The position numbers and the translations under genes were made by a program. From positions 30,618 through 94,617 of the forward strand of contig CAZCFM010000001.1 in the NCBI GenBank assembly GCA_964497855.1: DNA of 64,000 nt, written 5' to 3'. Source of the DNA: an uncultured Verrucomicrobiota bacterium. GTDB lineage: Bacteria > Verrucomicrobiota > Kiritimatiellia > SS1-B-03-39 > UBA6053. The notes below the pieces were generated by a model. The model saw nothing but the letters and a program-made list of their open reading frames with translations. It did no database searches and was not told the origin of the DNA. Of this stretch, positions 3,853 to 52,738 are shown one piece after another (position 1 is the stretch's first letter; every line of letters begins with the position of its first letter).

Positions 3853-5021
3853 TACATGCCTGCCAACAGTTCCGGGATGACGCGGGCCATCATCTGCTCC
3901 AAGCCGGAACGGTCCACATCTGTGGGCACAGCGGCGATGACCGCGCGCGCGAGGCGCTGGGGTTCCACGGAAAGGGCGTTCGCAAAAAAGAATAACGTTT
4001 CACCGGAAAACGCATAGGACTGTTTGATCAGTTCGTCGGCCACATCGGGGTGCAGTCGCAGCGCGGCGGCGTCTTTCCAGACCAGGCGGGTGGTTTTGGC
4101 CAGCGTGGCATCAAGGGTCCCACTGACATGCAGCGTTCCCTGCATGGATTGATGGGCGGTTTGGGTTGTGAGGTCCCCGGTGGCTTTAACATACGCTGGC
4201 GTTGTTTCGCTGGTGCGGGCGGAGGTTTCGCCGCTCACTTCACTGATACGGCGGCAGACCTCGACACTGGGGCGGGTGGACTCTTCGTAGGTCGCGTCGC
4301 TGATGGGTGTGGTGAGTTCCGTGGATTGTTTGGAGGCGTTTCCGGTTGCCGCGGACAACCGGGTCGTCGCATTCAGGCTCGGATCCAGCGACTCGCGGGA
4401 GGTCGCTTCGCTCATCGGTGCCGTGAGTTCGGTCGATTGCCCGGTTGCGTTCGACGTGGAGTGGAGCGATTGTTCGCTGAACGTAGAGGTCACTTCCGAA
4501 AATCGGGAACTGGCCTCCAGGCTGGGTTCGAGGGATTGCTCCGTGGTCGCATCGGTCATGGGCGCGGTGAGATCCGTGGCCTGGGTGGTGGCCTCGCTGC
4601 TGCCCTCACTGCTTTGCTCTGTGACCTTGGATACCGTCTCCAGACTGGGTTCAATGGATTTCTCCGTGGTTGCCTGAGTGAGCGGAACCGTGCGCTCGGT
4701 GCTCTGACCGGTCGCGTGTGTGGTCGCGTCGCTGACGGGCGCGGTGACGTCAATCGAGCGCTCGGAACTGCGGTCACTGAAATCAAGCGTGGGCCGGGTC
4801 GAGTGTTCGTAGGATTTCCGGCTGACAGCGGCGGAATGATTCGCGGTGACCTCCGTCCCCTCGCTCAGTTGCTCCGCGGAAACTTTCACGCTTTTGCGGT
4901 AGGTGATATCCATGGAATGTGCGGTGGTCTGACCGGAAAAGGTAAATGGTCCCGCGAAAACAATGTGGGCACAGAGGCCCCCACAAAACAGGAAACAGTG
5001 GAAGCAGAATTGTGTGCGCAT
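3852..5021 (-). CDS. secreted Ser/Thr/Glu-rich tandem-repeat protein, unknown function
   Basis: Signal-like N-terminus (MRTQFCFHCFLFCGGLCAHIVFAG). At least 4-5 degenerate ~42-45 aa repeats with core STELTAPMS(D/E)AT..ESL(E/D)PSL. Non-repetitive C-terminal ~90 aa. Its stop TAA overlaps the ATG of the downstream DUF4105-like gene by 1 nt (ATGTAATG). Confidence 0.6.
   Translation of the reverse strand: MRTQFCFHCFLFCGGLCAHIVFAGPFTFSGQTTAHSMDITYRKSVKVSAEQLSEGTEVTANHSAAVSRKSYEHSTRPTLDFSDRSSERSIDVTAPVSDATTHATGQSTERTVPLTQATTEKSIEPSLETVSKVTEQSSEGSSEATTQATDLTAPMTDATTEQSLEPSLEASSRFSEVTSTFSEQSLHSTSNATGQSTELTAPMSEATSRESLDPSLNATTRLSAATGNASKQSTELTTPISDATYEESTRPSVEVCRRISEVSGETSARTSETTPAYVKATGDLTTQTAHQSMQGTLHVSGTLDATLAKTTRLVWKDAAALRLHPDVADELIKQSYAFSGETLFFFANALSVEPQRLARAVIAAVPTDVDRSGLEQMMARVIPELLAGM
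4206..4840 (-). repeat. in-frame degenerate tandem repeats (~130 nt period) inside the secreted repeat protein gene
   Basis: Seen at protein level: ATGQSTERTVPLTQATTEKSIEPSLE / ATDLTAPMTDATTEQSLEPSLE / ATGQSTELTAPMSEATSRESLDPSLN / STELTTPISDATYEESTRPSVE, plus YEHSTRPTLDFSDRSSE vs YEESTRPSVEVCRRISE. Boundaries are approximate. Confidence 0.6.
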
Positions 5022-15447: not shown

Positions 15448-15999
15448 TTACTCGACGACTTCCACGCTGATGGACAGTTGGACATCGTTGCCCACAACCA
15501 GACCACCCGCCTCCATGGATTTGCTCCAGGTCAGGCCGAACTCCGTGCGGTCAATCACTCCCGTTGCATTCAGGCCGTAGCGGATTTTGCCCCAGGGATC
15601 TTTAACCGGGCCAAGGAATTCCATGTCGAGACTCACTTCCTTGGTCACATCGCGGATGGTCAGATTGCCCACCAATTTCCCGCCTTCGATTTTGGTGCTG
15701 ACGAAGGTGATGGTGGAAAACTTTTCGACATCAAAAAAATCGGGATTGCGCAGATGGTCGTCACGTTTTTGGTTTTTCGTGTCGATGCTTTTGACCTGGA
15801 TGACGGCTTTGGCCCCAGTCACCTTGCCATCTACAACGGTGAGACTTCCGTCAAACTCGCCAAAACTGCCTTTGGTGCGGCTAACCACCATGTGGGGCAC
15901 CGAAAACGTGACGGCGGAGTGGGCGGTGTCGAGGGGAAGTTCGTTGGCGCTCACGCCAAACGCGGAAAGGGTCATCACTGCAAACAGAATGTTTTTCAT
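15448..15999 (-). CDS. yceI: YceI family periplasmic polyisoprenoid-binding protein
   Basis: Signal peptide MKNILFAVMTLSAFGVSA, then a YceI-type pattern (DTAHSAVTFSVPHMVVSRTKGSFGEFDGSL...RDDHLRNPDFFDVEKF). GGGAGA RBS upstream of ATG 15999. Confidence 0.88.
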   Translation of the reverse strand: MKNILFAVMTLSAFGVSANELPLDTAHSAVTFSVPHMVVSRTKGSFGEFDGSLTVVDGKVTGAKAVIQVKSIDTKNQKRDDHLRNPDFFDVEKFSTITFVSTKIEGGKLVGNLTIRDVTKEVSLDMEFLGPVKDPWGKIRYGLNATGVIDRTEFGLTWSKSMEAGGLVVGNDVQLSISVEVVE

Positions 16000-16097
16000 A
16001 GAGTTCTCCCGAGGGTTAAGGAAACAGAGGCCGAATTGCCTATTTTTTTTAATCGAACAACTCAGCAACCCCTTACGCGACATTTTGGCTTTTCACA

Positions 16098-16108
16098 GAG
16101 TCAGACCC
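16098..16108. repeat. left copy of 11-bp direct repeat (putative target-site duplication) GAGTCAGACCC
   Basis: Identical 11-mer immediately abuts both ends of the inverted-repeat element. Removing the element plus one copy gives a continuous intergenic sequence. Confidence 0.75.
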
Positions 16109-16365
16109 GAATGGCACTAACTTAAGAGTTGTTTCAAGGCGAACAGCTCCAACGGAGCGTTGCATATCAGCCAGGGGTGCAACCCCTGGAAAGGGTGTCG
16201 GAACAAGGGTGTGTTCTGAAGGAACACCGCATTTGCGGCGTGTTATGCCGCGTTCCTTCAGAACGCCACTCTGTTTTCTTCATCAACCCGGGGCGTTGCC
16301 CCTGATATGCATAACCCCTTTGGGGTTTTCGATAGGTTCCAGAATCCCTTAAGTTAGTGCCATTC
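16109..16365. mobile_element. MITE-like non-autonomous element (257 bp, long imperfect palindrome, no coding capacity)
   Basis: Perfect 18-bp terminal inverted repeats: GAATGGCACTAACTTAAG at 16109-16126, and its reverse complement at 16348-16365. Internal nested inverted repeats (GCATATCAG...CTGATATGC; GTTCTGAAGGAAC...GTTCCTTCAGAAC). Flanked by an identical 11-bp direct repeat. Confidence 0.75.
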
Positions 16366-16376
16366 GAGTCAGACCC
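16366..16376. repeat. right copy of 11-bp direct repeat (putative target-site duplication) GAGTCAGACCC
   Basis: See left copy. It lies 1 nt from the tilS stop codon (16378-16380). Confidence 0.75.
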
Positions 16377-16377
16377 T

Positions 16378-17772
16378 TTATGTGGGAGGCATGGGATCCA
16401 GTTGGGCCTTCAAAATAGGCTGCTGGGCTTTCCAGTTTTCGGCGACACGAAAACCGGGCACCCAGACGATCTCATCCCCGCAAACCAGGATCGGCCAGCG
16501 TTCGCGCAGGTGGAGGGGGATTTTGGCGTTGATGAACAAGTCCGACACCTTGATGCTTCCGAGGAGTCCCATTGGACAATAGCGATCTCCGCTCTGGCGG
16601 TGGCGGATCTGAAAAACGCTTCCCGCATCGGGAGGGCGTACAAAGGCGGTCAAGGGTCCCTCTGGGTCGCAGGTCTGGCTCTGGGCCGTGTCGAGTTTGT
16701 CTGTGGGCAACAAATGAAAGTAACATCCGAGCGGTGGCCAGAGTTGTGATTGTCCTGGCAGGAGGGTCAGGGACAAAACCTGTGCAACATCCTTCCATGG
16801 CTCCAGTTTCTCAGTGGATAGGCGAAGGCGGAGACCGGCAAGGTCTAGACGCTTGTCCGTCGGCGGAGGCTTCGCAAGGTGCTCGCAGAGGCGTTGCACG
16901 ACGGCCTGATCCACGCGCTGAGGATCGGAGCCACGTTCCATCAGCCAGTCAAAGAGCAGTCGTTCGCGCAACAGTTCCGGCAGCCTCCGCCAGGGGGACA
17001 GGAGCAACACGTCCCCTGCCCTGCAGGCTTTTCCACGGCGCAGGGTTTCTGCGTTCACCCAGTCCTCCATGCGGGCCTGTTGTTCGGCAAAGGCCGCGAG
17101 ATGGGCCGACGTCTCTGGATTGATGCACGCGTGCAGCAGCGGTAGAATGTCGTGCCGGACGCGGTTGCGAAGGAAGTGGGGATCGGCATTGGAAAGGTCG
17201 TGCATCACGGGCAGTCGCCAGGAGCGGCACTGGGCTTCGATTTCGGCGCGGGAAAAGCCCAGCAGCGGACGAATCAGGTCCACGCCGTCGGTCAGTTCGG
17301 CGCTGACGCGAATGCCGGCCGCGCCGCGGGTGCCGGTGCCGCGGCAGAGGCGCAACAACAGGGTTTCCGCTTGATCGTCGCGGTGGTGACCGAGCGCGAC
17401 GGCACCCGAACCGAATTCCGCGGCCGCGACGACATAGGCCTCGCGGCGTTTGCGGCGCGCGCACATTTCCACGGATTCGCCTTTGCGAAGTGAGGTGGGA
17501 ATCGCGAGATCGACATGGCGACACGGAAGCCCCAGTCCCCAGGCGATCTGTTGCACCAACGTCGCCTCCGCCGCGCTTTCCGCGCGCAGCCCGTGATCGC
17601 AGGTCAACACCGCGAGCTGTAGCTTCAGTTCGTGGCGTGCCGCCCACAGGGCGTGCAGCAGCAGAAGACTGTCCGCCCCACCCGAACAGGCCACGAGCAC
17701 GCGACGGCGCTGCACAGCGTCGAACAGTCCCGCTCTGCGGACTTCAGCGATGAATTTCTGCAAAAAAGACAC
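16378..17772 (-). CDS. tilS: tRNA(Ile)-lysidine synthase
   Basis: PP-loop VLVACSGGADSLLLLH. GHHRDDQAETLLLRLCRG motif. C-terminal TilS substrate-binding-like domain. Confidence 0.9.
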   Translation of the reverse strand: MSFLQKFIAEVRRAGLFDAVQRRRVLVACSGGADSLLLLHALWAARHELKLQLAVLTCDHGLRAESAAEATLVQQIAWGLGLPCRHVDLAIPTSLRKGESVEMCARRKRREAYVVAAAEFGSGAVALGHHRDDQAETLLLRLCRGTGTRGAAGIRVSAELTDGVDLIRPLLGFSRAEIEAQCRSWRLPVMHDLSNADPHFLRNRVRHDILPLLHACINPETSAHLAAFAEQQARMEDWVNAETLRRGKACRAGDVLLLSPWRRLPELLRERLLFDWLMERGSDPQRVDQAVVQRLCEHLAKPPPTDKRLDLAGLRLRLSTEKLEPWKDVAQVLSLTLLPGQSQLWPPLGCYFHLLPTDKLDTAQSQTCDPEGPLTAFVRPPDAGSVFQIRHRQSGDRYCPMGLLGSIKVSDLFINAKIPLHLRERWPILVCGDEIVWVPGFRVAENWKAQQPILKAQLDPMPPT

Positions 17773-52507: not shown

Positions 52508-52738
52508 ACGTGTGAACTCTTTGTTTTAGAACATTTTTTCGTTGGAATCTGAGCGAATTCGCTCGATGTAGAACTTTTGACATCATATCAGAGCTATATT
52601 CCCATTGAAATGGATGGAATGATTTAAGATATGGATTTTTTGACATGTCATCTAGGCCACCTCCCCCGCAACAATCCCGAAACCGCCTCACGCGCTCCAA
52701 ACGCGACAAGCGATTTCCTATCCATAAATGGAGCCACC

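Follow-up and report, generated by a model that had tools for sequence, protein, structure and literature searches.

We analysed a stretch of 64,000 nucleotides from an uncultured Verrucomicrobiota bacterium (contig CAZCFM010000001.1; the whole stretch is called the window below), in which a 257-bp element between the genes tilS and yceI had been predicted, from its letters alone, to be a MITE (miniature inverted-repeat transposable element). The tilS gene (16378-17772, minus strand) is intact, matches the Pfam families PP-loop (PF01171) and TilS_C (PF11734), and ends in a TAA stop codon at 16378-16380; for the yceI-like gene (15448-16000, minus strand; PF04264), the most likely start codon is the ATG at 16000, which is preceded by GGGAGAA, and the gene's open reading frame (ORF) stays open to 16083. 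The genes hom and mdh lie beyond this pair, and all neighbouring genes are on the minus strand. The element is bounded by the 18-mer GAATGGCACTAACTTAAG at 16109-16126 (plus strand) and its exact reverse complement at 16348-16365 (minus strand, 18/18), and both of these terminal inverted repeats (TIRs) are abutted by an exact 11-bp direct repeat, GAGTCAGACCC, whose left and right copies occupy 16098-16108 and 16366-16376, with 257 bp between them. A single nucleotide separates the tilS stop codon from the right copy, and 97 nt separate the left copy from the yceI ATG. No further match to GAATGGCACTAACTTAAG was found in the window at up to three mismatches, where shuffled sequences expect none. 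Removal of the element together with one 11-mer leaves the tilS stop codon, a single 11-mer and the yceI leader joined as CACATAAAGGGTCTGACTCTGTGAAAAGCC.

The only ORFs within the element encode 58 and 47 aa and are taken to be mechanical, and no similarity to a transposase was found inside the 257 bp; the element is accordingly regarded as non-coding. Its interior is an imperfect palindrome (alignment of the interior against its own reverse complement scored 154, versus 63 ± 16 for shuffled interiors), and the RNA fold of the element reached −139.7 kcal/mol (z = −10.7). The original prediction thus stands with regard to the perfect 18-bp TIRs, the position 1 nt from the tilS stop codon and upstream of yceI, and the lack of coding potential, and the fold that it proposed to check is a strong one.

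An exact scan for the 18-mer, covering one genome per species, returned at least 119 stretches of representative genomes (L001-L119) from at least 15 phyla by record titles; among the matches listed were Verrucomicrobiota, Planctomycetota, Lentisphaerota, Kiritimatiellota, Elusimicrobiota, Hydrogenedentota, Campylobacterota, several proteobacterial classes, Cyanobacteriota, Desulfobacterota and others, and their hosts belonged mostly to uncultured Planctomycetes-Verrucomicrobia-Chlamydiae (PVC), sulfur-oxidising proteobacterial and cyanobacterial lineages. The 18-mer was also present on one contig binned as Heimdallarchaeota (L009). Pairs of the TIR lie 1,554-1,562 bp apart in a Mariprofundus (L036), a Thiotrichaceae (L068) and a Kiritimatiellae (L045) genome, enclosing a single ORF of 487-488 aa in the first two and an ORF split into 135 + 352 aa in the third. 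The encoded protein matches Pfam DDE_Tnp_1, scores 194-201 bits against the NCBIfam model NF033592 'IS4 family transposase' (cutoff 115), and carries the residues D155, D231 and E348, whose spacings of 76 and 117 fall within D(60-110)D(100-150)E, as well as the motif YFQRWDVELFFRDIK at residue 341, which corresponds to Y(2)R(3)E(6)K. Full-length insertion sequences (IS) with the same ends as the element, which the original prediction had suggested searching for, are thus found in three genomes, and related IS occur in Kiritimatiellia metagenome-assembled genomes (MAGs; L045 and L071). The same 18-mer also bounds many non-coding derivatives of 92-414 bp.

For the IS4 subgroup of the IS4 family, Table 1 of De Palmenaer, Siguier and Mahillon (2008, PMC2266710) lists a size of 1400-1650 bp, direct repeats of 10-13 bp and ends of the form -AATR--------WTW. 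The full-length elements, at 1,524-1,562 bp and with 11-bp or, in some cases, 10-bp duplications, fall within the tabulated size and repeat ranges, and GAATGGCACTAACTTAAG shows the end signature as AATG (positions 2-5) and TTA (positions 14-16); the parent IS agrees with the IS4 subgroup in all criteria tested. The Escherichia coli IS4 prototype, taken from a plasmid record, has ends TAATGCCGATCAGTTAAG, a length of 1,426 bp and a 12-bp duplication. Like IS4, the parents (1.52-1.56 kb) encode a single DDE/YREK transposase, have ends with the subgroup signature (TAATGCCGATCAGTTAAG is identical to GAATGGCACTAACTTAAG at 12/18 positions) and produce duplications (10-11 bp) within the 10-13 bp of the subgroup; unlike IS4, only the 257-bp non-coding derivative is present in the window, and the transposases that go with exactly this TIR share about 22-23% identity with that of IS4.

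Transposases encoded beside the identical 18-mer were 31-62% identical to that of L036, and from an 18-mer that is identical next to enzymes so diverged it follows that the end is far better conserved than the enzyme. Either the ends are constrained far more tightly than the transposase, or the elements are frequently exchanged. Comparison of the transposase with a plasmid collection (tblastn) gave matches of less than 40% identity with generic 'IS4 family transposase' annotations, and no named IS was found among them.

We examined the flanks of this TIR group using 165 listed TIR ends, 47 TIR pairs in other genomes and a logo built from 147 distinct flanks. Perfect 11-bp duplications were found at 19/47 pairs and 10-bp duplications at 2/47, while several pairs showed 1-3 mismatches, making 11 bp the modal duplication length of the group; the perfect 11-bp cases comprise the full-length elements L036 and L068 and 17 short elements. 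In several genomes a given short element is present more than once, and the isolate Thiohalocapsa halophila DSM 6210 contains two complete 195-bp copies with the duplications GAGCCTGGCCC (L020) and GTTACTGTCCC (L059). The flank consensus of the 147 distinct ends is A-rich at −19 to −13, followed by GGGNCWGNCCC at −11 to −1. IS231A is tabulated with the target GGGNNNNNCCC and an 11-bp duplication (PMC2577343 Table 1, citing Hallet et al. 1994), and the target consensus of this TIR family follows the same IS231A-type pattern, GGGNNNNNCCC with 11 bp. On the gene strand the window site reads ACATAAA-GGGTCTGACTC, with an A-rich stretch preceding a match to 8/9 specified consensus positions.

The 11-mer was also considered as part of a longer imperfect TIR, since it matches its own reverse complement at 8/11 positions and recurred beside TIRs in BLAST comparisons. 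This was ruled out by flanks that differ from copy to copy, are directly duplicated and have only a degenerate palindromic consensus in common, and by the contig breaks described below, which place the repeat boundary at the tip of the TIR. Because each element has its own directly repeated flank and only a degenerate consensus is common to them, the 11-mer is a true target-site duplication at a preferred target, as originally proposed. The original suggestion that a duplication of this length points to a particular transposase family acting in trans also held, with 11 bp being modal in the IS4-subgroup TIR group and the ends being those of IS4-subgroup IS in other genomes.

Two further observations concern the target. 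The elements L036:439-2014 and L068:558-2136, with transposases 62% identical and unrelated hosts, have an identical 11-bp duplication, GGGACAGTATA; this common site may reflect chance, given the target preference, or a preferred site within another repeat. In L026:4181-4721, two elements of 116 bp (4181-4296) and 414 bp (4308-4721) stand back to back with a common target, GGGACAGACCA, and the 414-bp element has the end variant GAATGCCGCTAACTTAAG and retains a 114-aa C-terminal fragment of the transposase. This pair illustrates both re-insertion into a regenerated target and the origin of MITEs by internal deletion.

The source population provided evidence on copy number. TilS proteins 99% identical to that of the window were confined to a few assemblies from JGI and Logan; identity falls to 72% for the next relative, and the rest are at most 50% identical and mostly labelled Kiritimatiellia. 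The host is taken to be an uncultured PVC bacterium, probably of the Kiritimatiellota. Three JGI contigs from three samples (L120, L121 and L122) carry the element at the tilS site, identical save for one single-nucleotide polymorphism in the far TIR of L121. In L120:4822-5232, however, only one end joins the tilS-side flank, and the far end exits into GGGGCTGCCCG, which also fits the target consensus, and then into unrelated sequence, so that L120 holds either a second genomic copy (or a join through one) linked up during assembly, or a true rearrangement through the element. Furthermore, four SRA runs each yielded a Logan contig that breaks off at window position 16336, that is, 30 nt inside the element when counted from the tip of the right TIR at 16365 (16336-16365). 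Logan graphs use k = 31 (PMC12424806), and a contig that enters a repeat from unique sequence ends k−1 = 30 nt inside it. Four ends lying exactly 30 nt inside the tip imply that the TIR tip is where the repeated unit begins, with the 11-mer excluded, and that at least one further copy with another flank is present in each sample; on this assembly evidence the element appears to be multi-copy in the source population. The situation named in the original prediction as contrary to it, a single copy everywhere and no cognate IS, is thus not the one encountered: we found a second flank in L120, k−1 breaks and cognate IS.

An alternative haplotype of the same population was seen in three further contigs, where window 16380-16427 corresponds to L124:5578-5630, L125:172-224 and L126:169-221, and DNA identity of about 97-99% stops at 16427. 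The last ~16 codons of tilS are diverged yet homologous in this haplotype (TilS of 465 aa), and a giant ORF (>1,487 aa) follows tilS instead of the MITE and yceI. The switch at 16427 looks like a recombination boundary. Elsewhere, window 52660-52725 is 88% identical over 66 nt to L126:769-833, upstream of a gene start.

The interior of the element proved to have relatives of its own. In L072, a Verrucomicrobia MAG, a 273-bp element has the same ends around a homologous interior and is flanked by a 10-bp duplication, and a metagenome scan with the central core common to the window and L072, GTTCTGAAGGAACRCSGCAT, returned at least 120 loci (L133-L252). None of the 120 loci listed had a TIR at up to three mismatches, and the similarity between the window and these loci spans only about 16146-16325, never the terminal 37-40 bp. 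A covariance model (R1) built solely from 70 TIR-less metagenome half-modules gave exactly two matches in the window, both full-length and both inside the element: 16143-16232 on the plus strand (78.5 bits, E = 1e-14) and 16245-16329 on the minus strand (54.9 bits, E = 9e-10). In 618 kb of TIR-bearing genome loci, the model matched only inside the MITEs of L072 (twice), L028 and L016, and BLAST placed the same repeat inside the L116 MITE also. These matches indicate, at the level of sequence, that the interior at 16143-16329 (~187 bp) is two inverted half-modules of a separate family, which we call the palindromic repeat (PR); no PR was found elsewhere in the 64-kb window. The original description of the interior as a nested imperfect palindrome holds, with the qualification that it is not plain IS-derived filler but a copy of an independent, TIR-less repeat.

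The overall layout of the element is thus a TIR and a spacer of ~16-18 bp, one PR, and again a spacer and a TIR. The left subterminal spacer (16127-16142, plus strand) is specific to this MITE lineage and lies outside both the metagenome repeat matches and the covariance model hit. Half-module A (16143-16232, plus strand; BLAST identity of 73-80% to many metagenome loci) contains the hairpin GCTCCAACGGAGC (16146-16158), the linker GCATATCAG (16162-16170), the hairpin CCAGGGGTGCAACCCCTGG (16171-16189) and the core GTTCTGAAGGAAC (16213-16225). A central loop (16233-16244) of 12 nt, compared with 30-36 nt in stand-alone PR copies, separates it from the inverted half-module B (16245-16329, minus strand), which contains the core GTTCCTTCAGAAC (16252-16264), the hairpin GGGGCGTTGCCCC (16290-16302), the linker CTGATATGC (16302-16310) and the hairpin CCCCTTTGGGG (16315-16325). 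The right subterminal spacer (16330-16347, minus strand) is likewise uncovered by metagenome repeat matches.

In metagenome contigs, the stand-alone PR is a palindromic repeat of 203-215 nt made of two inverted half-modules, each of ~88 nt and three hairpins. Each half reads, in order, a hairpin GCCCCAACGGGGC, two variable nucleotides (nn), GCATACCAG, a hairpin CCCAGGG-loop-CCCTGGG, ~25 nt, and a hairpin GC GTTC TGAAG GAAC GC followed by CGCAT, after which come 30-36 nt of variable sequence and the mirror image. Single half-modules were seen as well, as were tandem arrays that repeat every 60, 168 or 264 nt. Around cleanly delimited PR units, neither a target duplication nor a conserved flank was found (0/11). 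The two outer hairpins keep their pairing by compensatory change: 95.7% of cells were paired, and 58 double-change cells were observed versus 13.5 ± 3.0 after shuffling, with 0/500 shuffles reaching 58, and register-slid controls collapsed. The metagenome contigs with a PR are of Verrucomicrobiota type, and at least one host belongs to the Verrucomicrobiota; on one such contig, the repeat adjoins an SMC gene, most named relatives of which are from that phylum. The PR often occurs several times per contig, for example at L141:4993-5202, L196:195-407 and L136:1-1040. A reading of the arrays as attC-like or CRISPR-like was dropped, the arms being inverted and leaving no room for cassettes.

No Rfam family was matched at threshold on the element, on 20 PR loci or in 38 related loci. 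Acido-Lenti-1 (RF01687), which has a gathering score of 37, aligned along its whole model to window 16145-16189 on the minus strand with 29.2 bits, and membership was rejected on that score and on the lack of a threshold match in the 38 related loci. The two hairpins and linker of Acido-Lenti-1 nevertheless resemble the PR sub-module at 16145-16189, and the sub-threshold match covers this hairpin-linker-hairpin unit; the match prompts the question whether the Acido-Lenti-1 motif is itself part of some repeat or MITE family of Lentisphaerae and Acidobacteria.

Taken together, the element is very probably a non-autonomous IS4-type MITE, mobilised in trans by an IS4-subgroup DDE transposase and carrying a copy of the PR. 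It is short (257 bp, below ~500 bp) and non-coding, its TIR is identical at 18/18 positions to that of autonomous IS, and its duplication agrees at 11/11 positions and has the length of the IS duplications. A transposase of this subgroup, encoded elsewhere, would bind the 18-bp ends GAATGGCACTAACTTAAG, excise the 257-bp unit and insert it as one unit, cutting with an 11-bp stagger at a quasi-palindromic, bendable target of the form A-rich-GGGNCWGNCCC-T-rich, which here would have been GGGTCTGACTC directly after the tilS stop codon. Repair of the stagger would give the 11-bp duplication and would regenerate the preferred target on both sides, which may explain the back-to-back elements of L026. 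Cut-and-paste chemistry is known for IS4-family enzymes such as IS10 and IS50, and by analogy we infer it for this element. The mobile unit would be a composite with ~37-40 bp at each end (TIR and spacer) enclosing one ~187-bp PR copy; the PR could have entered a ~77-bp mini-MITE, or IS ends could have captured a genomic PR.

Several observations weigh against this explanation. The copy number rests on one alternative flank and on assembly-graph breaks, and an IUPAC pattern with both element-specific ends, verified on the window and on L120-L122, gave 0 matches in a metagenome collection evidently without the source samples. The check for empty sites that the original prediction had proposed came out negative: no orthologous empty site was recovered among TilS relatives, as the contig of the nearest one (L123, 72% TilS identity) ends 26 nt past the stop codon with no TIR there, and L124-L126 were rejected as empty sites for the tilS 3' end diverged from 16427 and the other genes downstream. 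Neither the 64-kb window nor the short strain contigs yielded an autonomous IS or a transposase, so a trans-acting enzyme in this organism is what we infer, and the composite origin fits either of the two routes above.

The IS4-type MITE is compatible with an added function, in which the hairpin array would terminate or insulate tilS transcripts or alter the yceI promoter, as the original prediction suggested, or would stabilise the tilS 3' end. The position 1 nt past the tilS stop codon and 97 nt before yceI, the strong transcript fold, and PR hairpins kept by compensatory change, as expected under selection for structure, favour such a role; however, a consensus scan found neither an intrinsic terminator (hairpin with a T-run) on the gene strand nor a sigma-70-like promoter in or near the element, and hairpin conservation could equally reflect recognition at the DNA level. 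We regard this function as possible but rather unlikely.

It is considerably less likely that the element is a relic formed in situ, with a full-length IS4-type insertion having lost its interior by deletion and the 257-bp unit itself never having transposed. Deletion derivatives do exist, as in the 414-bp element of L026 with its 114-aa transposase C-terminal fragment, and no empty site was found; however, the interior has a PR in place of any similarity to a transposase gene or IS interior, L120 joins an identical 257-bp unit to another flank, the element tip is a branch point in four k = 31 assemblies, and L072 contains a homologous composite flanked by a 10-bp duplication of its own.

Still more improbable is a resident structured intergenic element (a cis-regulatory RNA, small RNA or REP-like palindrome) native to the tilS-yceI spacer, whose terminal repeats would only look like those of a transposon. 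The very stable fold, the interior hairpins that covary across the family and the sub-threshold Acido-Lenti-1 match are in keeping with it, but the identity of the ends to those of a transposase-encoding IS largely refutes it, and it is further opposed by a flanking 11-mer that is a duplication fitting the family target, by the absence of any Rfam family at threshold here or in 38 related loci, and by the absence of the element after tilS in strain variants and in the 26 nt covered in the nearest relative. Equally improbable are two separate events, in which a PR already at the site was bracketed by two independent solo IS or MITE ends: PR hairpins do hold GGG-N5-CCC strings such as GGGCAACGCCC that resemble the preferred target, but a single exact 11-bp duplication brackets the whole unit, the TIR and PR composite recurs in L072 and at the second flank of L120, and the PR is nowhere else in the window.

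MIC231 cassettes are mobilised in trans, and the IS231A/MIC231 pair of the Bacillus cereus group resembles the present system in its 11-bp duplication at GGGNNNNNCCC and its short non-autonomous derivatives. MIC231 is mentioned in PMC2266710. The IS231 subgroup differs in being almost confined to the B. cereus group and in having ends of the form CAT-------AA--TAA, whereas this element starts with GAATG and lacks that signature. The PR is like REP, BIME, REPIN and ERIC sequences in consisting of short hairpin modules, found alone, as inverted doublets or in tandem arrays, that have neither TIR nor duplication and covary in their stems, that is, keep their structure by compensatory change. It is unlike them in its longer units (203-215 nt, three hairpins per half) and in that one PR rides in a DDE-type MITE.

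MITEs, IS4-family derivatives and the GGG-N5-CCC/11-bp behaviour are already known. This end family with its derivatives and the PR appear to be undescribed in the searchable literature, where neither a 14-mer of the TIR nor a 13-mer of the PR core gave a match. The locus is a clean, checkable case in which an orphan element can be assigned to a transposase family by the length and sequence of its duplication. New are an IS4-subgroup clade with an identical 18-bp end, transposases diverged to as little as ~31% identity with the reference copy and derivatives in at least 15 phyla; the presence in this clade of GGG-N5-CCC/11-bp insertion behaviour, so far tabulated for IS231A; and an uncurated palindromic repeat of Verrucomicrobiota-type genomes that can ride inside IS4-type MITEs. 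Both repeat types are worth masking in uncultured PVC genomes and break short-k assemblies at predictable points. We further suggest, tentatively and with low confidence, that the PR is a functional structured unit (at the RNA or DNA level) of PVC bacteria that spreads both alone, as TIR-less, duplication-free copies and arrays, and as IS4-type MITE cargo between genomes and phyla, with a Kiritimatiellota-like case here and Verrucomicrobiota cases in L072, L028 and L016. If so, what arrived after tilS with the insertion would be a preformed hairpin module, for instance one that stabilises 3' ends, attenuates transcripts or binds a protein, and not inert DNA.

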